Origin: a bacterium
GTDB lineage: Bacteria; Arandabacterota; Arandabacteria; Arandabacterales; JALGWA01
Assembly: GCA_050125095.1 (NCBI GenBank)
Contig: JASFEA010000045.1
Location: 1 to 20,435, forward strand
Direction: 5' to 3'
DNA: 20,435 nucleotides
In this document: positions 6,928 to 20,435 of the stretch, in pieces
Layout of the letters: the number at the start of each line of letters is the position of its first letter
How positions within the stretch are numbered: position 1 is the stretch's first letter
Translations under genes and position numbers: made by a program
The notes under the pieces: model-generated
What the model saw: the letters and a program-made list of their open reading frames with translations, nothing else
The model's database searches: none
Told to the model about the DNA's origin: nothing

Positions 6928-7014
6928 GATTCCCTCCTCAAGGCACCTTGTTCGAACGTGGACACATCCATGTGTCGGGCGACACCGTGACGGGTGCATT
7001 ACCCTCAGTCACCT

Positions 7015-7023
7015 ATAATATCA
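7015..7023 (-). promoter_or_regulatory. Extended -10 element TGaTATTAT for 5752-6927
   Basis: Minus strand reads ...gatTGATATTATagg, ~90 nt upstream of the start. Confidence 0.4.
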
Positions 7024-7068
7024 ATCGGCAACATGGCTGCCGAAGTGATGGAATTTCGCGTTTGCTTG

Positions 7069-7077
7069 TGCTATAAT
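7069..7077 (+). promoter_or_regulatory. Extended -10 element TGcTATAAT for the peptidase gene
   Basis: Perfect TGnTATAAT ~45 nt upstream of ATG 7123. Confidence 0.6.
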
Positions 7078-7122
7078 GAGTCGAATAGCAATGGATTGGA
7101 ATATCTAAGAACGGAGGGGATA

Positions 7123-10100
7123 ATGCGCACTCTGGCCAGATTGTCGGTTTTTGCGTTTGCTGCGGCGATATTGGCAGCCGCCCCGGTCCTGGCTTTCAAT
7201 ACCGCCCGGGATGCCACGCTCTGGGAGATCCCGAGACAAGGCGCTCCGTCCCAGCTGACCTGGGAATCGCGCCACGTCGAAGCGCCCGGTGTCCAGGCGC
7301 TGGGGGCCGCGGCGGCCCCGGCGGCTCTGGCGGCATTCGCCGAGAGCTACGGCGGCAACTGGCATTACCAGGTAAACACCGCCACGGGGACTTTCCACCA
7401 TGTCTATGGAAGCGGAATAAACATGTCCCGACCCGCTGACTCCGGGCAGGCCGCGGAAACCCTGGCAAGAGACTTCATAAGCAGGAATCAGGAACTTTTC
7501 GGCGTCGGCAATGAGGACCTTGTTGCAGTCAACAACGCTTCCGGGCCCGGCAAGCGCTCCGTCATTTTTCAGCAGACCTTCGGCGGCTTACCCGTCTGGG
7601 GCGGGCGCGCGCATCTTGTATTTACCGAGGCGGGCAGGCTCTTCGCCTTCGGGTCGGACGTATTTCCGGGCGTCGATATCTCGGTAAGCCCGGGAATATC
7701 GGAAGCCCTGGCGCTGGCAATCGCGAAGGACGACATCGGTTTCGTCGAGGGCGTCGACACGGTTGACCGCAACGAGCTCTGGGTCCTCCCCGTGGAAGTC
7801 GGCGAAGGCGGCCTCGAGTACCGCCTGGCCTACCGTTTCGACCTCAACATGACAGATCCGTTCGGCATCTGGGCGACCTGGGTGGATGCCGGCACCGGCG
7901 AGATACTCTGGCGCGAGAATCACATACGTTTCGCCGATTTTACGGGTAGCGTCGAAGGCGACGTCGAGTGGGACGGCTACTGCGACGGCTTCACGTACGA
8001 CTATCCGCTCCGCAATATGCGAATAAGCATCAGCGGGGTCGGCACATGCTATTCGGATGCGAACGGCGACTTCTCCATCTCGGGAACCGCCGGCTCCAGG
8101 ACCATAACCGCGGGGCTAAACGGCCACTGGGTGACGGTTGACGTTTACGGCGGCACAAACGCCAGCCATAGCGGCACCATCACTGACGGCACCCCGTATC
8201 TGATAGACTGGAACGAGAGCAACTCGCTACACAGCGAGCGTGACGTATTCGCCTATGTAAACAAGGAGCATGACTGGCTCAAGGACATGGACCCAGATTG
8301 GACCGGCGTTGACTACGAGATGCTGGCCACTGTAGAACGCACCGACCTCTACTGCCCGGGCAACGCGTGGTGGGACGGAAGCGGCATCAACCTCTGTGTG
8401 GAGAGCGCCAGTTACGGCAATACCGGCAGAATGGGCGACGTCGTCTATCACGAATACGGCCACGCCGTCACGGATTTCCTCTACGGGCCGAGCGACCCGC
8501 CGAGCGACATGCATGAGGGCAACTCCGATATCATCGCCAACTACCTCACGCGCGAGAGCATCATGGGCCTCGGCTATTATCTCAATAACTGCACAAGCGG
8601 CATACGCAACTCGGACAACACCATGACTTGGCCATGCACCGGCAGCGGTCACACATGCGGGCAGGTCATAGCCGGATTCCACTGGGACGCCTGGCAGGAA
8701 TTGCTGGCGGTATATTCGCAGGAATATGCCGACAGCGTGGCGCGCTACACCTGGCACTACGGAAGGAAGCTCGGGCTTCCCCAGTCACAGCCGGACCAGG
8801 TGTACTGGACCTTCGTAGCAGACGACAATGACGGCAACCTGGACAACGGGACGCCCCATTATCCCTACTTCTGCACGGCGGCCTCGAACCACGCCTTCCC
8901 GTGCCCTGAAATCACGGCGGGCGTGACAATAGTCCATACTCCGCTCGATAATACTCAAAACACGACCAGTCCATATGAAGTCGTGGCTGAAATAACGTCT
9001 AATGCCGGCTCGATCGTTCCGTCGAACTGCCGCGTGACTTACAGGATAGACGGCGGGTCCTTCGTCGACGCGACCATGGAGCCCACGGGTAATCCGGATG
9101 AATACGCGGCTGACATCCCTGCGCAGGCCGCCTGCACCGACGTCGAATATTACATCTACGCCGAGGACGACGCCTCCAACACCGCGACGCACCCGCCCAC
9201 GGCGCCGGCGGTTCTGCACGGTTTCGGCGTCGGCTATGACGACATCTTCGCCGACGACTTCGAAGCCGACCAGGGTTGGACGGCCGGTCTGCCGGGCGAC
9301 GACGCCTCGACCGGCATGTGGGACCGCTGCAATCCGCAGGAAACCACCGCACAGCCCGCAGATGACAACACGCCCGGCGCCAATTACAACGCGTACATAA
9401 CCGACTGCGCGGCGGGTTCGAGCCAGGGGTCCTATGACGTGGACGGCGGCAAGACAACACTTCAGTCCCCCGTGTTCGACCTGTCCGACCAGGCGGCGGT
9501 GCGGGCCATATACTACAGGTGGTATTCCAATGACACCGGCTCCGAGCCGGGCGTGGACGTCTGGGTGGTCCAGGTGACCGACGACGCGTGGGCGACCTAC
9601 GCCGAGCTCGAGAACACCAACGTGAGCAACCGGAACTGGACAAGAATGGAGTTCAGTCTCGGCGACTACATCGACCTCACCGACCAGGTGCAGTTCCGAT
9701 TCATCGCAAGCGACGAGGACGGCGGCTCCATAGTGGAAGCCGGGGTCGATGACTTTTCACTCATCGGCTGCTCCTCCCAGGCGGACACCACGGCCCCGTC
9801 GGTGACGGTCGTTGAGCCCAACGGCGGGGAGCTCTATGTGGGCGGCGACGACACGCCCTATCCGGTTGAGTGGACGGCGTCCGACGATGTCGGAGTAGTG
9901 GCGACCCACATACTGCTTTCGCAGGACGGCGGGTCGACCTATCCCGACACAATCGCGACCGGCGCTATTACATCGCCGTACGACTGGTTCGTGCCCGTTT
10001 ACTATGATTCCGAGACCTGCAGGGTGAAGGTCGTATGCGTTGACGCCGCGTCCAATGAAGGCAGCGACGAGTCTGATGCCGATTTCGAGATCAAGAGCCT

Positions 10101-10407
10101 GGCGGGTGTCGAGTCCGGAGAGTTGCCGGCTACGGTGGTGCTGATGCAGAACCGCCCGAGCCCCTTCGGGGGTTCGACCCTGATCGAATTCGGGCTGCCC
10201 CGGACAGCGGAAGTCTCGCTGGCCGTCTTCGACGTCTCGGGCCGCCGCGTCGCGACGCTCGCCGAGGGCTTGCACGAGGCCGGCTACCACCAGGTCACAT
10301 GGACGGCCTCCGGCACGGACGGGGCGAAGGTATCCCCGGGTGTTTATTTCTACAGGCTTGTTACAGGCTATAGCGTACTGACACGTAAAATGTTGGTCGT
10401 TCAATAG
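7123..10407 (+). CDS. Large secreted zinc metallopeptidase (M4/M36 thermolysin/fungalysin-like) with FTP/PepSY-like propeptide, accessory beta domains and FlgD-Ig/T9SS-A-like C-terminal domain
   Basis: ATG 7123 after GGAGGGG. Signal peptide; FQQTFGGLPVWG and WVDAGTGEILW propeptide motifs; NAWW; HEYGH (8449-8463); third ligand MHEGNSD. C-terminus QNRPSPF...VFDVSGRRVATL...GVYFYRL. Confidence 0.9.
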   Translation: MRTLARLSVFAFAAAILAAAPVLAFNTARDATLWEIPRQGAPSQLTWESRHVEAPGVQALGAAAAPAALAAFAESYGGNWHYQVNTATGTFHHVYGSGINMSRPADSGQAAETLARDFISRNQELFGVGNEDLVAVNNASGPGKRSVIFQQTFGGLPVWGGRAHLVFTEAGRLFAFGSDVFPGVDISVSPGISEALALAIAKDDIGFVEGVDTVDRNELWVLPVEVGEGGLEYRLAYRFDLNMTDPFGIWATWVDAGTGEILWRENHIRFADFTGSVEGDVEWDGYCDGFTYDYPLRNMRISISGVGTCYSDANGDFSISGTAGSRTITAGLNGHWVTVDVYGGTNASHSGTITDGTPYLIDWNESNSLHSERDVFAYVNKEHDWLKDMDPDWTGVDYEMLATVERTDLYCPGNAWWDGSGINLCVESASYGNTGRMGDVVYHEYGHAVTDFLYGPSDPPSDMHEGNSDIIANYLTRESIMGLGYYLNNCTSGIRNSDNTMTWPCTGSGHTCGQVIAGFHWDAWQELLAVYSQEYADSVARYTWHYGRKLGLPQSQPDQVYWTFVADDNDGNLDNGTPHYPYFCTAASNHAFPCPEITAGVTIVHTPLDNTQNTTSPYEVVAEITSNAGSIVPSNCRVTYRIDGGSFVDATMEPTGNPDEYAADIPAQAACTDVEYYIYAEDDASNTATHPPTAPAVLHGFGVGYDDIFADDFEADQGWTAGLPGDDASTGMWDRCNPQETTAQPADDNTPGANYNAYITDCAAGSSQGSYDVDGGKTTLQSPVFDLSDQAAVRAIYYRWYSNDTGSEPGVDVWVVQVTDDAWATYAELENTNVSNRNWTRMEFSLGDYIDLTDQVQFRFIASDEDGGSIVEAGVDDFSLIGCSSQADTTAPSVTVVEPNGGELYVGGDDTPYPVEWTASDDVGVVATHILLSQDGGSTYPDTIATGAITSPYDWFVPVYYDSETCRVKVVCVDAASNEGSDESDADFEIKSLAGVESGELPATVVLMQNRPSPFGGSTLIEFGLPRTAEVSLAVFDVSGRRVATLAEGLHEAGYHQVTWTASGTDGAKVSPGVYFYRLVTGYSVLTRKMLVVQ

Positions 10408-12920: not shown

Positions 12921-13005
12921 GGATACCCGCCCCCGCGCCCGCCTGTATGCACTTGACCCGCACCCTCCGGAGCACGAAAATGGTCTAAAGGTATAGGAGG
13001 TTCAT

Positions 13006-13935
13006 ATGGCGGGATTCATAGGAGATTTCGGACGCGCGCTTGCCGGCTATTTGCTGGACGTAGTGCCGGCAGTGGCCGTCGGCTTTCTCATAAGCGGCAT
13101 AGTGCATGAATTCCTGCCGTCGGACTGGATCGAGAGGAATATGGGCGGCAGGGGCTTGCGGGGTATACTGTATGCCACAGTGGTGGGAACCGTCGCGCCG
13201 GTCTGCTGCTGGGGGTCGCTTCCCATAGCCGTGAGCCTGCACAAGCGCGGCGCGTCGCTGGGCCCCGTGCTGGCTCTGCTGGTCGCCACACCGGCGACCT
13301 CGATAACCGCGCTCATAATGACGTGGCAATTCTTCGGCCCCCTGTTCGCCGCCTACCTCGCGGTTTCCGTAATTCTGATGGGCATAATCATAGGCCTGGT
13401 GGGCGATCTCCTCAGGGTTGTGCCCAGGGAAGTGGAGGAGGAGCCCGCCTGCCCCCATTGCTCGGGCGAGTCCTGCTGCGCCGATCACGGTCCGGCGACA
13501 TTCGGGACGAGGATCAAGTCGGTTCTCCACTATGCCTATGTCGAGATGCCGAGGGAAATAGGCGTCGAGCTCGTGATCGGAGTCGCACTGGCGGCTTTCG
13601 TGAGGGTAGTCACGCCCGTCGGGACGCTGATGAGGAATTACCTGGGTGGAGCGCGCGCCTACGTTTTCGCGGTCATCTTCGGCATCATAATGTATATGTG
13701 CGCCACCATGAGCGTTCCTCTGGTTGACGCATTCATCAGGCAGGGTTTTGCCGGTGGCGCGGGGATGACGCTGCTGCTCGTAGGCCCCGTCACCAGCTAT
13801 GGCACCGTCCTCGTGCTCCGCAAGGAATTCGGGCTGAAGGTGCTGCTGGTCTACCTGGGGCTGCTGGCGATTCTTGCCATACTGCTTGGCTATGTATACA
13901 CGCTGTTGCCTGGCTCTGTCCACGCCATGATTTAG
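13006..13935 (+). CDS. ArsP/DUF318-family permease with Cys/His-rich central linker
   Basis: Two homologous halves with PVCCWGSLP...LLVATP and YMCATMSVP...LLVGP. Linker CPHCSGESCCADH. RBS AGGAGG. Confidence 0.85.
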   Translation: MAGFIGDFGRALAGYLLDVVPAVAVGFLISGIVHEFLPSDWIERNMGGRGLRGILYATVVGTVAPVCCWGSLPIAVSLHKRGASLGPVLALLVATPATSITALIMTWQFFGPLFAAYLAVSVILMGIIIGLVGDLLRVVPREVEEEPACPHCSGESCCADHGPATFGTRIKSVLHYAYVEMPREIGVELVIGVALAAFVRVVTPVGTLMRNYLGGARAYVFAVIFGIIMYMCATMSVPLVDAFIRQGFAGGAGMTLLLVGPVTSYGTVLVLRKEFGLKVLLVYLGLLAILAILLGYVYTLLPGSVHAMI

Positions 13936-14168: not shown

Positions 14169-14232
14169 GGAAATGGGTTAAGCAAAAATGACCCCTGTAC
14201 AGGTTCCTCAACCACCGAACAGGAGGTGCAGA

Positions 14233-15552
14233 ATGAGAATTGCCTCGATAGCAAGGCTCGGCATGGCTGCTGCGCTCATCGCTGTTATGTGCGGCGCGGT
14301 CTTCGCGACGAACGGTTATTTCCCTCACGGCGTGGGCATGAGGGCCAAGGCCGTAGGCGGAGCCGGGGTGGCGTGGCCCCAGGACGCCATGGCCGGCGCC
14401 ACCAACCCGGCGGCCGCGGGATTCCTGGGCAATCATTTCGATGCCGGGCTGGATATCTTCAGGCCCAGCCGCGGGAGTGAAATCGGCGGGAACGACATGG
14501 GGGAGGACGAAAGCGCGGACGGCATGTATGACGCCAACGGCAAGAGCAACTTCTGGATCCCGGAGATCGGCTACAGCAATCAGTACCGCGATCATCTTGC
14601 CGTGGGATTCGCGCTGTTCAGCCCAGGCTGGATGAATACGAAATACGCGACTCCCATTCCGGTTCTCGGTGTGACAAACGCCGGCGTGGATTTGATGCAG
14701 CTGTCCCTGGTCCCCTATGTCTCCTACAGGGTGAAAGAGAATCACTGGCTCGGTTTCGGGCTCAATCTGGCATGGCAGACCTTCGAGGCGACAGGACTTG
14801 AGAATCTCGCCGATACGGTATGGACTTCCGACACGACCTACGTGGGCGTGCACTCCAGCGATCCCATGAGTGTCACCAATAACAGCCATGAGAGCTCGAT
14901 GGGCGTGGGGCTTTCAATTGGCTATATGGGCCGCGTGCATGAGATGGTCGACGTCGGGGCCGTATATCACAGCCGCACCTATATGGGGAGGTTCAAGAAG
15001 TACGCGGGCCTGCTCGCCGAGATGGGTGACTTCGACATGCCGCCTTCGATTGCCGGTGGCGTCACGGTAAGGGCAACCGAGAAGGCGACACTCGCTTTCG
15101 ACGTGCAGCACATATGGTACAGCGATATCAAGTCCGTCGGCAATCCGCTGCTCCCGAATCTCGAGGAGGCGCAGCTCGGCGAGGACGGCGGGGCCGGTTT
15201 CGGCTGGGAAGATGTCACGGCGTTCAAGTTCGGCCTGGCATATGACGCCACCGAAAAAGTGAAGCTGCTCGGCGGATTCAACTACGGAAAGCAGCCCGTT
15301 CCCGAGTCCGAAACCATGTTAAACATGCTCTCGCCGGGAGTGGTGGAGAGCCATCTCACCCTGGGCGCAACCATAAGGACCTGCACCGGGATCGAGGTAA
15401 CGCTCGCCTATATGCACGCCTTCCAAACCAGCGTTGACGGTTCGGGCTCGATCCCGGAGGGCGACATGGAAGACGGAGGCTTTGGGGGCGGCGAGTCCAG
15501 CATCAATATGAGTGCCAATTCATTCGGAATAGCCGTGGGCTGGGGCTTCTAG
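14233..15552 (+). CDS. FadL/OmpP1/TodX-family outer-membrane transporter for hydrophobic compounds
   Basis: ATG 14233 after AGGAGGT. Signal peptide; TNGYFPHGVG...GGAGVA.PQDA....NPA hatch motif; GFGWED; terminal Phe. Confidence 0.9.
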   Translation: MRIASIARLGMAAALIAVMCGAVFATNGYFPHGVGMRAKAVGGAGVAWPQDAMAGATNPAAAGFLGNHFDAGLDIFRPSRGSEIGGNDMGEDESADGMYDANGKSNFWIPEIGYSNQYRDHLAVGFALFSPGWMNTKYATPIPVLGVTNAGVDLMQLSLVPYVSYRVKENHWLGFGLNLAWQTFEATGLENLADTVWTSDTTYVGVHSSDPMSVTNNSHESSMGVGLSIGYMGRVHEMVDVGAVYHSRTYMGRFKKYAGLLAEMGDFDMPPSIAGGVTVRATEKATLAFDVQHIWYSDIKSVGNPLLPNLEEAQLGEDGGAGFGWEDVTAFKFGLAYDATEKVKLLGGFNYGKQPVPESETMLNMLSPGVVESHLTLGATIRTCTGIEVTLAYMHAFQTSVDGSGSIPEGDMEDGGFGGGESSINMSANSFGIAVGWGF

Positions 15553-15603: not shown

Positions 15604-15655
15604 AGGCACTTCTTCCCCCCCCGGCGCTGCATTTGCCCCAATGCATCAGGCCCGT

Positions 15656-15993
15656 AAATAAGAAAGAGCCAGGGCGGGCTTAGGTGAGTTTACTTGACTT
15701 CGCTAAGCCGAGGAACACTTCGCAGCGCCGAAGGGAGTTCAGTCTGCGCACTCAGCGATTTTGCACGCGAAGGCTGTAACCACTCATCAAGAGGCTAATG
15801 CCAGCCCTGACTCAATATTCACTTTTTAAGCCCATTCGGGAGAAAGAACCGGGGCAGGAACAGCCGCTCTTAGAACCTGGAGAAACGGGAAACACGTTGT
15901 CCGGGTATAGAGATTATTCTCCCGGAGTGCTCCGAAACGGCCGTCCTTGCCATCACAGCTCGTCAACTCCCCGCGGTATCAACCGCGTTTTTC
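15656..15993 (-). ncRNA. Candidate structured non-coding RNA of unknown family (3' ~150 nt folds as a 6S-like rod)
   Basis: Lies downstream of a near-consensus sigma70 promoter. Nested stems use G-U pairs only on the minus strand. U-rich tail at 15656-15665. No convincing ORF. Confidence 0.5.
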
Positions 15994-15999
15994 AGGTGA

Positions 16000-16028
16000 A
16001 TTTTATCGCTAAAAACCACTCATGTCAA
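16000..16028 (-). promoter_or_regulatory. Near-consensus sigma70 promoter TTGACA-N17-TAAAAT
   Basis: Minus strand reads TTGACA tgagtggtttttagcga TAAAAT: 11/12 consensus with optimal spacing in a GC-rich genome. Confidence 0.75.
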
Positions 16029-16143
16029 CACAATTATGACTGAAACACGGGGTGCATATGAAATGCATTGAAATAGAGCGAGTTATAGGGCTTCGAAGGC
16101 CCGCAATCCGGTTGGAGTCCGGGTTTGAGGTAGGTTAAGGTGG

Positions 16144-17838
16144 CTATTTCTGCGAGGCCTTCTGGATCCTGGCCCACTGGTCGCGCAGTGTCACCGTCCG
16201 GTTGAACACGAGCCGCCCAGGCCCCGAGTCGATCGCGTCCATGCAGAAGTAGCCCATCCTCTCGAACTGGAAACGATCGCCCGGGCCCGCCGCCGCGAGG
16301 GCGGGCTCGACCTTGCAGGAGGTGAGTACTTCGAGGGAGTCATGCCGGATGTAGTCCTTGAAGTCCTTGCCCTCTTCGCCGGCCATTGGATTTTCCCTGG
16401 TAAACAGGCTCTCGTAAAGGCGGACCTCGGCGCCGACGGCGTGCTGCGCCGATACCCAGTGAAGCGTTGCCTTCACCTTGCGGCCGTCCGGCGCGTCGCC
16501 GCCGCGGGTCTCGGGGTCGTAAGTGCATCGGAGCTCGGTGACCTCGCCGGTGCTTTCGTGCTTAACGACGTCCACGCACTTTATGAAATAGGCGTAGCGC
16601 AGCCGCACCTCGCGCCCTGGAGCCAGCCGGTAGAACTTCTTGGGCGGCTCCTCCATGAAGTCCTCCCTCTCTATATAGAGAGTCCGTGAGAATGGGACTT
16701 TGCGTGTTCCCGCGGCGGGGTCTTCGGGATTATTGACGGCGTCCAGCTCCTCGGTTTCATCCTCGGGATAGTTTTCGATTACAATCTTGAGGGGCCGCAG
16801 TACGGCCATCACGCGGGGCGAGCGCCTGTTGAGATCCTCGCGCACGCAGTGCTCAAGCAGCTTGATATCCACGATGCTGTCGGCCTTGGCGATACCTATC
16901 CTGTCGAGGAAAGCCTTGATGGCCTCGGGCGTGTAACCGCGCCGCCTCATCGCCGAGAGCGTGGGCATGCGCGGGTCGTCCCAGGAGGCCACGTATCCCT
17001 CCTCCACCATCTGGCGGAGTCTTCTTTTGCTCATCACGGTGTAAGTCAGGTTGAGCCGGGCGAATTCGATTTGCTGCGGGTGATGGACATCGAGCTCGTC
17101 GAGGAACCAGTCATATAACGGCCTGTGATCCTCGAACTCCAGGCTGCAGAGCGAGTGCGTTATGCCCTCGATAGAGTCCGACAGGCAATGCGTGAAATCA
17201 TACATAGGGTAAATGCACCAGTCGTCACCCGTGCGGTGATGCGTGGCGTGAAGAATGCGGTAGATGACGGGGTCGCGCATGTTGATATTGGGCGCGGCCA
17301 TGTCTATCTTCGCCCTCAGCGTGCGGGAGCCGTCCGGGAACTCGCCCTTCCGCATGCGCTCGAACAGGTCCAGGTTCTCCTGGGCGGACCGCCCGCGGTA
17401 GGGGCTTTCCTTGCCCGGCTCGGTGAGCGTTCCGCGGTACTCGCGCATCTCTTCGGTGGAGAGGTCGCATACGTAGGCCCTGCCCTTCTTGATGAGCTCG
17501 ACCGCGTAGTCGTAGAGCTGCGGGAAGTAGTCCGAGGCGTAATAGAGTCTGTCGCCCCAGTCATAACCCATCCAGCGTATGTCCTCCTGGATGGCGTCGA
17601 CGTACTCGGTCTCTTCCTTCGTAGGGTTGGTATCGTCGAAGCGCAGGTTGCAGAGCCCCCCGAACTCCAGCGCAACGCCGAAGTCGAGGTGAAACGCCTT
17701 GGCATGGCCGATGTGAAGCCGCCCGTTGGGCTCGGGCGGGAAACGCGTATGCACCCTCCCGCCGTACTTGCCCGTCTCGTTATCATGTATGACCGTCGCG
17801 CGGATGAAGTCCACCCCGCGGGTATCTGGCCCGCTCAT
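16144..17838 (-). CDS. glnS: Glutamine--tRNA ligase
   Basis: [17 protein letters not shown] (HIGH motif), [45 protein letters not shown]. Confidence 0.97.
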
Positions 17839-18232: not shown

Positions 18233-20435
18233 CTATTTCAAGAGCACAACCTTGGCGGTTGCACTGAACTCATCTGCCGCCATGCGGCAGAAGTAGATTC
18301 CTCTGGCCACTCTGTGGCCCGTGCTATCCGTTCCGTCCCAGACCGCCAGGTGCGTCCCCGCCTCCGCGTCCTCATCCACGAGAGTCTTCACAAGCCGCCC
18401 GTTCACATCGTAGACACTCAGCGACACATGAGACGCCGCCGGAAGGGCGTAACCTATAGTGGTGGTTGCCGAGAACGGGTTAGGGCGGATCGGACCCATG
18501 CCGATCTTCACGATCTCCTCTTTGTAGTCGTTGTCTTCGATGACAGCCACGGGGTCTCCCTCGTTGAACATGGCCTCGTTCAGATTGACCTTCGGCGACG
18601 CCACCGGTACGCCGGGAGCGAACCTCTTCTTATTGAATGTAAGGGTGGCGATTCTCCCGTTACCCGTGAAGCTGGTCGCGCTCGCCATGGCTATGAAGAT
18701 GCTGTCCGCGTTGGCCCGGTCCTCAATGGCCCAGCCGGACGCCAGCCCGCCCGCAACAGATGAAACATACTCGAGGGCGCCCGTATCGTAAAGAAGTCCG
18801 AGCTCGACTGAGAATATGTCTTCGGTTTCGCGGACGAAGACGGGTATCTTGACCGTCCCGGCGTCATGTCTCGGGTGCCCCAGCTTGATATAGGCCTGGA
18901 CGGGCGGGGCGAATGGCGCTATGCCGGGCGCCCCGGACACGTTGCCCTTGAGTACACCGATGTAGTCCACCCCGCCGTCGCAACCATATATGCAGCCGTC
19001 GCACGGGCTCGGGAACCATACCCACGGGTCGGGGCAGGGGAATGCCGGCAGCGCGCCCACAACGTACTGCAGCACCAGCGATGCGTCATATGCCGTTATG
19101 GAGTTGGTGCAGCTGACGTCGGCCGCTATCCTCTGCGGCGCCCAGGTCATGCATGTATGGAACATGCAATCATCGAGGTCGTCGAGACAGACTATGTGTT
19201 GGAGAATCAGAGATGCGTCGTAAGCAGTGATCAGCCTGCGCGGGACCTCACAGTTGTCCACGTCCACGCAGTACGAGTATACGCAGTCAGGGTCCCCGGG
19301 CGGCAGGCATTCGAAGACATAGGACCCCGCCGCGTCCGTATAGGCGCTGGCGATCGGGCCGTTACAGTCCCACAGGTTGATGCGCGCGCCCTCAATGGGG
19401 TGAGTGAGATAATATCCGCCGCAATCGTCGTAGTCGCAGTACCAGTTGTGAACATAGCCGTGCACCGTGCAGTGCTCGACGCAGACCCGGCCGTCCTCCC
19501 AGCATACCTGGAGGGGGTCCTCGGGGTCATAGAGGTTGACATGTTCGAACCAGATATCGCAGCACATGCACGGCTTGGCGTTGTCGCTCACGTGGAACTT
19601 GAGATAAAAGAGCACCCCGCCTCCGGCCAGGGGCCCGGCTCCGGCCGCGGCCACGCTTATGCAGTTCTCTCCGCACGGACCGCAAACCGGATCCGCCCAG
19701 CTGGAGTTCAACATTACCTCTCCGGGGTCGCAGAACTCGTACTGCAGGAGCCCGGCGGGCACGCCACACCAGCAGATTTCCATATCGAAGGCCATGATGC
19801 CCCAGCCGGTGACGTCCTGGATGTATATGGGGACGTACACGTTCTCGCCGGGGTCCACCATGATGTCGTCGGGTATGCCGATGTCTATTCCCTCACAGGG
19901 TTCGGCCACGTCCTTGTGCCACCACTGTGGCGTCTCGAGCTCGGTGACGCTTTCAAGAGCGCTCACTTTCTCGAAGGCCTCCTGCCAGGTCCACCCGGAG
20001 TCCATCAGGCCCCGCATGAAGGGACCGGCGAAGGCTCCGCCGTCATCGGCCGAGCCGTATGAGTACTCGCCCTCGTTGCTGGCCATGGCCTTATCGACGA
20101 AGGTCTTGCAGGGAATGCTGTCGGCCTCGTCCTTCTTGAAGCCGCCGCTGAAGCAGCAGTCGATGAGTTCGTATATGGAGTCGAGGCAGGCGTCCGAGAG
20201 CATCTTCTGCCAGCTGGCCCATTCGTCATCGAGAATGTCCCTGGTGTCGTTGGAGAGGGCAAGGTCTTCATCCCAGGCGAATGAGTCGTCCTTATCCCCG
20301 TCGCCGTTGAGGTCGACCCCTCCGTCATCGGCGTCTATGTCACCGTCACCGTCGCCGTCCGAACCCGCAAGCACCCAGCCCGTTCCGGTCTTCACCCAGA
20401 TCTCCTTGGTGCCGGCCGTGTTGCGGAGCTCCGTA
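18233..20435 (-). CDS. 5'-truncated large secreted protein: caspase-like (clan CD) peptidase C-terminal part, cohesin, carboxypeptidase-regulatory-like, dockerin-like, cohesin and FlgD-Ig/T9SS-A-like domains
   Basis: Frame is open to the window edge. LIDCCFSGGF; IPDDIMVDPGENVYVPIYIQD...GVLFYLKFHV; two ITAYDASL(I/V)LQ repeats; second cohesin-like VKIPVFV...LLYD...GRIATLTF; PNPFSATTTIGY...YDVNGRLVKTL...GIYFCRM. Confidence 0.85.
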   Translation of the reverse strand, partial: TELRNTAGTKEIWVKTGTGWVLAGSDGDGDGDIDADDGGVDLNGDGDKDDSFAWDEDLALSNDTRDILDDEWASWQKMLSDACLDSIYELIDCCFSGGFKKDEADSIPCKTFVDKAMASNEGEYSYGSADDGGAFAGPFMRGLMDSGWTWQEAFEKVSALESVTELETPQWWHKDVAEPCEGIDIGIPDDIMVDPGENVYVPIYIQDVTGWGIMAFDMEICWCGVPAGLLQYEFCDPGEVMLNSSWADPVCGPCGENCISVAAAGAGPLAGGGVLFYLKFHVSDNAKPCMCCDIWFEHVNLYDPEDPLQVCWEDGRVCVEHCTVHGYVHNWYCDYDDCGGYYLTHPIEGARINLWDCNGPIASAYTDAAGSYVFECLPPGDPDCVYSYCVDVDNCEVPRRLITAYDASLILQHIVCLDDLDDCMFHTCMTWAPQRIAADVSCTNSITAYDASLVLQYVVGALPAFPCPDPWVWFPSPCDGCIYGCDGGVDYIGVLKGNVSGAPGIAPFAPPVQAYIKLGHPRHDAGTVKIPVFVRETEDIFSVELGLLYDTGALEYVSSVAGGLASGWAIEDRANADSIFIAMASATSFTGNGRIATLTFNKKRFAPGVPVASPKVNLNEAMFNEGDPVAVIEDNDYKEEIVKIGMGPIRPNPFSATTTIGYALPAASHVSLSVYDVNGRLVKTLVDEDAEAGTHLAVWDGTDSTGHRVARGIYFCRMAADEFSATAKVVLLK

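Follow-up and report, generated by a model that had tools for sequence, protein, structure and literature searches.

The window analysed here, a stretch of 20,435 nt of contig JASFEA010000045.1 from an uncultured bacterium of sediment and wetland, very probably carries on its minus strand a gene for a structured RNA of about 335 nt, which extends from an inferred start to the end of a U-rich tail (15656-15993). We propose that 15993-15656 is a stand-alone non-coding RNA (ncRNA) gene whose family is absent from Rfam, and give this overall explanation, mechanism included, a probability of roughly 0.5. Its parts differ in strength: that the gene is real is very probable and that it represents a new RNA family only slightly less so; the mechanism, in which a trans-acting module is recognised by a protein or another macromolecule, is tentative. 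The RNA appears to be neither the 6S RNA of the cell nor a cis-regulator of a downstream gene. An initial annotation of this DNA had put forward a structured, promoter-driven, apparently non-coding and novel RNA at this place, and that claim is borne out: the RNA is conserved in relatives, occurs in an RNA library and has no match in Rfam.

The gene is preceded by a sigma-70-type promoter, TTGACA-N17-TAAAAT (16000-16028, minus strand), which is present exactly as the initial annotation had placed it and matches the consensus at 11 of 12 positions. Two promoter-like sites occur in a 1.1-kb region, against 0.4±0.6 in 50 shuffles. Five species were compared: that of the window (G000), G001, G002, L031 and L034. 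The -35 hexamer is identical in all five and the 17-nt spacing is constant, with a -10 hexamer of TAAAAT, TAGAAT or TACAAT. Genome-wide, 118 sites with at least 11 of 12 matches are found in 3.35 Mb; the first Mb contains 36 of them, whereas mononucleotide shuffles yield 0-2. Of the organism's own stable RNA genes, that for 6S RNA has a 12/12 promoter and that for tmRNA a 10/12 one. Together with the genome-wide enrichment, these two promoters indicate that the lineage uses consensus sigma-70-type promoters for stable RNA genes. Judged by its sequence, the promoter described here ranks among the strongest of the genome.

Further upstream, about 70-80 nt from the inferred start, lies the element TTCAATGCATT (16062-16072, minus strand), which includes the 8-bp palindrome AATGCATT. 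It is identical in four of the five species, with one change in G001, and its surroundings are variable. This 11-mer occurs once in the 3.35-Mb genome. A regulator of the RNA gene may bind here, which would hint at regulated transcription.

The predicted RNA is built of five successive parts, all on the minus strand. Its start is inferred at G15993 or A15992, 7-8 nt past the -10 hexamer; both ends are inferred, not mapped. The 5'-terminal hairpin CGCGGU-UGAU-ACCGCG (15972-15987) is present in the minimum free energy (MFE) fold, and in other species two of its six pairs carry double-sided changes (G-C to A-U, U-A to C-G). It is followed by the 5' domain (15838-15971), an extended, irregular hairpin in which the basal helices are conserved and the tip varies. 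A linker (15814-15837) ends in the conserved A-rich stretch AAAAAGUGAAUA, predicted to be unpaired; its AAAA and UGAAUA are invariant, and the base in between is G in three species and C in two. The 148-nt 3' domain (15666-15813) consists of a 10-bp GC-rich closing stem, GAGUCAGGGC/GCCCUGGCUC, which encloses a multi-helix core. Directly 3' of the closing stem comes the U-rich tail UUUCUUAUUU (15656-15665), retained in all five species and taken as the 3' end, formed by termination or trimming.

Evidence of expression comes from one RNA library among the 16 sequencing runs listed, a wetland metatranscriptome kept as contigs (X10). This run includes 8% of the words sampled from a 3.6-kb stretch. 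A contig of 305 nt matches positions 15671-15975 over its entire length, at a depth of 21.9 and with no differences; its strand is not given. This contig is the sole difference-free record of X10 on the stretch, falls inside the predicted limits of the RNA and has no loose end listed at 15671-15975. As it spans both the 5' and the 3' domain, the two occur on one molecule. On the flanking 3.3 kb the library yields six short pieces only (35-63 nt, with 3-8 differences and loose ends), which we count neither way, since missing cover proves nothing on how the neighbours are expressed; in the DNA run X1 all 30 bins are covered. The small word shares of runs X5-X14 were left out of account for habitat. 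This is fair evidence for a molecule with about the predicted limits, abundant enough to assemble, with its start, end and strand not proven thereby.

The 3' domain is conserved to an unusual degree. Its pairwise identity is 92.6-100%, and the five species agree at 134 of 148 positions. The 5' domain has 56-91% identity and glnS DNA 80-94%; among the three genomes of the genus, 6S RNA has 86-90% and RNase P RNA 93-96%. By these values, conservation of the 3' domain matches that of RNase P RNA within the genus. No synonymous-type variation is visible in it, which argues against coding constraint.

The five copies were gathered in several ways. A blastn search recovered the region from the two remaining genomes of the genus, where about 380 nt align at 77-79% identity. 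Metagenome contigs, scanned for an exact 20-mer, gave four loci, of which two repeat those of the window and G002 and two belong to the further species L031 and L034; a second such scan, over 185,579 species genomes, returned two records. A covariance model of the 3' domain picked out three genomes in each set searched, of 16 in the order, 18 in the phylum and 151 among relatives. Among the genomes searched, the RNA is thus far found in one genus only, as far as sequence searches detect it. The 15 genomes of the phylum without a match are 57-99% complete, so that non-detection there does not prove the RNA to be absent.

Outside the genus, blastn over 61 genomes gave merely a 23-nt chance match in G008. 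The covariance model gave extra matches at chance level in two genomes of the order (E 0.12-0.17, not adjoining glnS), nothing new in the phylum, and two extra matches at E 0.01-0.02 among the 151 relatives, about the number expected by chance. None of these extra matches (E 0.01-0.17 per genome) adjoins glnS or an orthologue of the FadL-type gene that lies next to the RNA in the window. A search of the glnS loci of the sister family with nhmmer and the full alignment found no match, and the unfiltered covariance model reached at best E 0.28 beside the FadL-type orthologues of G011, G015 and G017. The RNA has no paralogue in its own genome, where it is single-copy. Phages and plasmids likewise lacked a match, and viral contigs an exact copy of a 20-mer. 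An RNA of a mobile element or phage was accordingly rejected: it is single-copy, lacks counterparts in the phage, plasmid and viral collections, and its synteny is fixed in five species.

That synteny is simple. The RNA gene sits inside a gap of 590 nt between glnS (16144-17838; 864 bits against the GlnRS model) and a convergent outer-membrane gene of the FadL/TodX family (14188-15552; PF03349, E 1e-20). The order glnS, RNA, convergent FadL-type gene is the same in all five distinct species, so that in these species the place downstream of glnS, where the initial annotation had suggested a homologue search, holds the RNA in synteny. At none of the five loci does a same-strand gene follow the RNA; the next gene is convergent, in agreement with the earlier statement that the promoter has no protein gene to serve. 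A cis-regulatory leader (riboswitch, T-box or attenuator) was rejected on this ground, and for want of a model match.

No known family accounts for the RNA. The whole window, scanned with the 4227 models of Rfam 15, gave no match at gathering score, which upholds the novelty claimed before. Relaxing the threshold to E up to 10, on stretches of 701 and 351 nt and on the G001 copy, produced chance-level matches only; the best were 6C with 19.1 bits (cut-off 47), U8 with 13.3 (41) and sR30 with 11.2 (38). The weak matches to C/D-box families reflect UGAUGA and CUGA strings, from which no convincing kink-turn could be built by eye. ARAGORN found nothing in the window; T-box and tRNA-like readings, also without a model match, were discarded. 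A hammerhead-like arrangement noticed by eye (UUGAUGAG ... CGAA ... GUC), compared with the hammerhead core, was set aside as well: the CUGAUGA box has an extra U, 15.1-16.1 would be G-C, and no model matches. The E. coli genomes gave no match by blastn, and in a full-text literature search we found no description of the RNA in the portions of text that it returned.

The housekeeping RNAs of the organism are encoded elsewhere in its genome. Canonical 6S RNA, whose presence the initial annotation had proposed to check, lies on contig C69 (75.5 bits with the RF00013 model) and occurs in G001 and G002 too; RNase P RNA is found on C3 (305.6 bits), tmRNA on C225 (223.2 bits) and SRP RNA on C29 (79.2 bits). 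With all four accounted for, the RNA does not stand in, as a diverged copy, for a housekeeping RNA otherwise missing from the genome.

The minus strand folds better than expected. The RNA of 338 nt reaches -126 kcal/mol, compared with -109.3±5.2 kcal/mol for shuffled sequences (z -3.18; 0 of 100 as good). The plus strand reaches -113.3 kcal/mol (z -2.30; 1 of 100), i.e. 12.7 kcal/mol less favourable. The 3' 165 nt alone give -57.4 kcal/mol (z -2.30; 3 of 200 shuffles). The 5' part, comprising the terminal hairpin and the 5' domain, is paired in 88.2% of 255 cells. Double-sided changes affect nine of its pairs; shuffles have 4.2±1.6 such pairs, with nine attained in 3 of 500, and slid controls have 0-2. 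Coming from five related sequences, this covariation provides good but not decisive backing for the 5' part.

Two folds can be drawn for the 3' domain, with only the 10-bp closing stem in common. All helix arms quoted by the initial annotation were recovered by script and pair in the way described; the rod that it assembled from them over the 3' 148 nt can be drawn, but is neither the best fold nor fully conserved. Its energy is -41.5 kcal/mol in strict form and -50.1 kcal/mol with extra pairs, and a multi-branch fold reaches -56.2 kcal/mol, so that the rod is 6-15 kcal/mol worse. Across species, 97.4% of the cells of the rod are paired: in its helix UGAGU..UUAC/GUAAACUCA, substitutions in G002, L031 and L034 break five cells in three pairs. 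In the multi-branch fold, which has 100% of its cells paired in the five species, the same substitutions sit in a hairpin loop of 7 nt. Of the 14 variable columns of the domain, six fall in pairs of this fold, kept via G-U or A-U, and eight in unpaired positions. These comparisons favour the multi-branch fold over the rod; coming from five sequences that hold no double-sided changes, the choice between the two is not final, and both may be possible as alternates. Comparative support within the 3' domain is limited to the closing stem and the 3' hairpin.

A second structural proposal, that the 5' part pairs long-range with the 3' arm to give two conformations, is not supported by conservation. 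The longest of its helices, GGAGCAC/GUGUUCC, loses three or four of its seven pairs in each of the other four species. The three short helices lie in invariant sequence and are hence uninformative.

From these elements we propose the following mechanism. The RNA would be stable and abundant, with stems protecting both of its ends: stability is suggested by the stems that close the two ends, and abundance by the strong promoter and the assembled RNA contig. It would act in trans, given that no same-strand gene follows it at any of the five loci. The near-invariant 3' domain would form a tightly folded multi-helix module recognised by a protein or other macromolecule, as its roughly 120 contiguous invariant positions exceed what a seed or a mere shape would need. 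This module could serve as a scaffold, a decoy or the core of a catalytic ribonucleoprotein. The variable 5' hairpin would mainly stabilise or present it.

Several points weigh against this explanation. Confinement to a single genus is odd for an RNA conserved like a housekeeping RNA. No pair of the 3' domain is changed on both sides under either fold, so that its structure rests on energy and one-sided changes. Two overlapping alternative folds, or extended pairing with a target, could also give near-total invariance. A simple terminator scan did not call the closing stem and U-rich tail, which do not make a textbook terminator; the scan missed them because their 'loop' is a domain of 128 nt. 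Finally, expression is seen in one RNA run of one study, kept as contigs that give neither strand nor true ends nor level, and an RNA library can carry DNA.

It is rather improbable that the RNA is instead a base-pairing regulator, in which the unpaired A-rich linker and the loops of the 3' domain would pair with mRNAs, perhaps of envelope proteins such as the FadL-type neighbour. It has the typical form of such RNAs, with its own promoter, a terminal stem followed by a U-rich tail, and a stand-alone position beside an outer-membrane protein gene, an adjacency retained in all five species. However, a length of 335 nt with about 120 contiguous invariant positions goes far beyond the needs of a seed. 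Against the mRNAs of the two neighbours, pairing does not rise above background: duplex energies are at most in about the best 1% of random genome windows, with none of the duplexes at a start codon. The best complementarity elsewhere in the genome consists of two 19-nt matches (E 0.63), one of them mid-gene, and a search for Hfq (PF17209) in G000, a genome 91% complete, gave no match.

Some antisense RNAs are controlled by a riboswitch, such as AspocR in Listeria and the S-box antisense RNA of Clostridium acetobutylicum. By analogy, ligand binding to the 3' domain might stabilise the closing stem and stop transcription at the tail, with antisense read-through into the FadL-type gene otherwise. 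The convergent transporter gene of all five species would suit such a sensing RNA, as would the U-rich tail directly after the closing stem and a multi-helix junction with the sequence invariance of an aptamer; in G002 the stop codon of the transporter gene touches the tail. Against this, the closing stem is retained by both candidate folds, no competing pairing capable of opening it was found, and in the window and G001 a further hairpin stands before the transporter gene. The 170-nt 5' domain would be left without a role, no aptamer of Rfam matches, and known riboswitch classes are widespread, unlike an RNA of a single genus. A sensing RNA with a conditional stop is unsupported and, in our view, unlikely.

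A divergent 6S-like RNA with a leader was one of two readings offered by the initial annotation. In this or an Ms1-like form, the 3' rod and its bubble would mimic open promoter DNA and sequester RNA polymerase. Abundance, a strong promoter and the drawable rod with its asymmetric bubble (97.4% of cells paired) agree with it, and second 6S-type RNAs occur in some bacteria. An exact 11-mer, GGTTACAGCCT, is moreover common to the window (15771-15781) and E. coli ssrS (152-162; L060 335-345), but the alignment extends no further and the organism's own 6S RNA lacks the word, whose sharing is probably due to chance. RF00013 (gathering score 46.4 bits) does not match the window or the G001 copy even at E up to 10, and a canonical 6S RNA is present on C69 and likewise in G001 and G002. 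The rod is energetically disfavoured and one of its helices is partly broken, as described above. In addition, 6S RNA is conserved in shape over sequence (here 86-90%), unlike a domain with 93-100% identity. The 6S-like reading is not supported by these results, and we judge it very unlikely.

A coding role was also weighed. A small open reading frame (ORF) lies inside the 5' domain (15870-15956, minus strand), with 28 codons from a GTG or 27 from an ATG, and the initial annotation had named the latter as another explanation of the region. An mRNA, or a dual-function RNA, would then encode a peptide of 22-28 residues starting MMAR(K/T/N)A. The frame is open over 22-28 codons in all five species, its first codons are conserved and a GGAG, a possible ribosome-binding site, is found 10 nt upstream of the GTG. 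But codon periodicity is lacking, as of 22 columns 12 vary at the first codon position, 14 at the second and 16 at the third, and the C-terminal halves are unrelated between species. The GGAG and the first, conserved codons are inside helices conserved as RNA, and the best-conserved part of the transcript lies 3' of the stop codon. The small ORF is probably not a gene, and a peptide-coding transcript is highly improbable. On the plus strand, an antisense ORF of 81 aa (15798-16043) was rejected: it is open in four of the five species, the longest open stretch of L031 being in another frame.

Least probable of all is a conserved DNA element between convergent genes, made of terminators and protein-binding sites, with DNA carry-over as the source of the RNA-library contig: the contigs are strandless, such a library can carry DNA and the hairpins at both ends are terminator-like for either strand, but one-sided changes yield G-U pairs on the minus strand only, this strand folds 12.7 kcal/mol better, the 5' domain has compensatory changes, the promoter is conserved with correct spacing, and no known DNA site would be expected to need 148 near-invariant bases.

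A sponge for CsrA was considered separately and rejected. Known CsrA sponges, such as CsrB and RsmZ, carry many GGA motifs in loops. The size range of the RNA would fit, and G000 encodes two CsrA homologues (C46:7360-7509 and C8:7377-7529). In contrast to those sponges, GGA occurs only 3-5 times in each RNA of the five species and is absent from the 3' domain. Nearly all copies fall within predicted helices, and the MFE fold leaves no more than one of them per RNA fully unpaired. We know of no CsrB-like sponge RNA in this lineage.

The stand-alone ncRNA proposed here can be set beside several known systems. With 6S RNA (RF00013, ssrS) it shares an abundant stand-alone gene, a sigma-70-type promoter, a long closing stem and a drawable rod with a bubble. 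It differs from it in being twice as long, with an extra 5' domain, in the lack of a model match and in its much higher sequence conservation. Ms1 of mycobacteria, an RNA of about 300 nt, binds the RNA polymerase core. Size, abundance and lineage restriction are similar, and both RNAs are unrelated to 6S in sequence; however, there is no Rfam match here, and Ms1 belongs to Actinobacteria, in contrast to a host that encodes type IX secretion cargo.

A general resemblance is seen to orphan large structured RNAs with their own promoter and terminator: the raiA motif RNA, OLE, ROOL and GOLLD, all of them families in Rfam. Stand-alone genes, multi-helix folds, strongly conserved nucleotides, high expression and a non-coding nature are common traits. 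None of their models matches, and they span many genera or phyla as opposed to one genus here. EutX/Rli55 and AspocR also have a conserved aptamer-like domain near the transcript end, no downstream ORF and a convergent gene reachable by read-through; here, by contrast, no known aptamer matches, no anti-terminator was found and the conserved domain is 3', after a long 5' hairpin. The RNA is very probably a new family of a known general kind, that of orphan, abundant, structured bacterial RNAs. What is unusual is conservation of its 3' domain at the level of RNase P RNA together with confinement to one genus of an uncultured lineage.

Some further features of the RNA and its surroundings may be recorded. 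The 3' strands of its two domains are alike, CCUGCCCCGGUUCUUUCU at 15841-15858 and CCCGCCCUGGCUCUUUCU at 15662-15679 (minus strand) being identical at 15 of 18 positions. As a hint of an old internal duplication of the domains this is weak, and it was not used: the local match of 18 nt has a score of 21, compared with 15.5±2.0 for shuffles, of which 6 of 300 score as high. Read on the plus strand, 15972-15993 presents the 5' hairpin followed by TTTTT and scores as an intrinsic terminator, and hairpin and A run are retained in all five species. Such a terminator could halt read-through from the FadL-type gene, after antisense crossing of the RNA gene.

In the window, about 100 nt separate the RNA from the FadL-type gene; this spacer is shorter in G001, L031 and L034, at about 50-80 nt. 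The additional hairpin of the window and G001 lies in it. In G002 (L003, about 1885-1897), the FadL-type stop codon falls within the U-rich tail of the RNA, without a spacer or separate terminator. The spacer of the window also contains a run of eight G on the minus strand (eight C on the plus strand; 15617-15624) that is not seen in the other species.

Elsewhere in the window, two large secreted proteins are encoded at 18233-20395 (minus strand) and 6994-10407 (plus strand), both with FlgD-Ig-like domains. The former has an additional C-terminal sorting domain of type IX secretion, from which it follows that the host lineage uses this pathway; the latter has an additional fungalysin/thermolysin propeptide motif. 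A gene for a permease of the ArsP/SO_0444 type (12985-13935, plus strand, 309 aa) is faced by an opposite-strand open frame nearly as long (312 aa), probably a GC-rich artefact.

Stand-alone structured RNAs conserved like RNase P RNA are usually central to the cell, in catalysis, in the control of polymerase or ribosome, or in protein sorting. The present one has no relative among the 4227 families of Rfam, and the phylum-level lineage of its host is represented by only 18 species genomes in the set searched. It is ready for assay as a new RNA: gene limits, promoter, two candidate folds and five natural variants are defined. Should it turn out to be an ordinary lineage-specific regulator, its value would be smaller, adding one more validated ncRNA and a caution on calling rod-like folds 6S. 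The interest would be high if the 3' domain proves to be a new catalytic, sensing or ribonucleoprotein fold. It is conceivable, if unlikely, that the domain adopts a new functional RNA fold and has a role of housekeeping grade in the lineage: a ribonucleoprotein core, a ribozyme, or a switch between multi-branch fold and rod. In the last case two folds would impose a double constraint, which would explain the 134 invariant positions among 148. If this were true, a whole class of RNA, living only in uncultured sediment bacteria, would have been overlooked.

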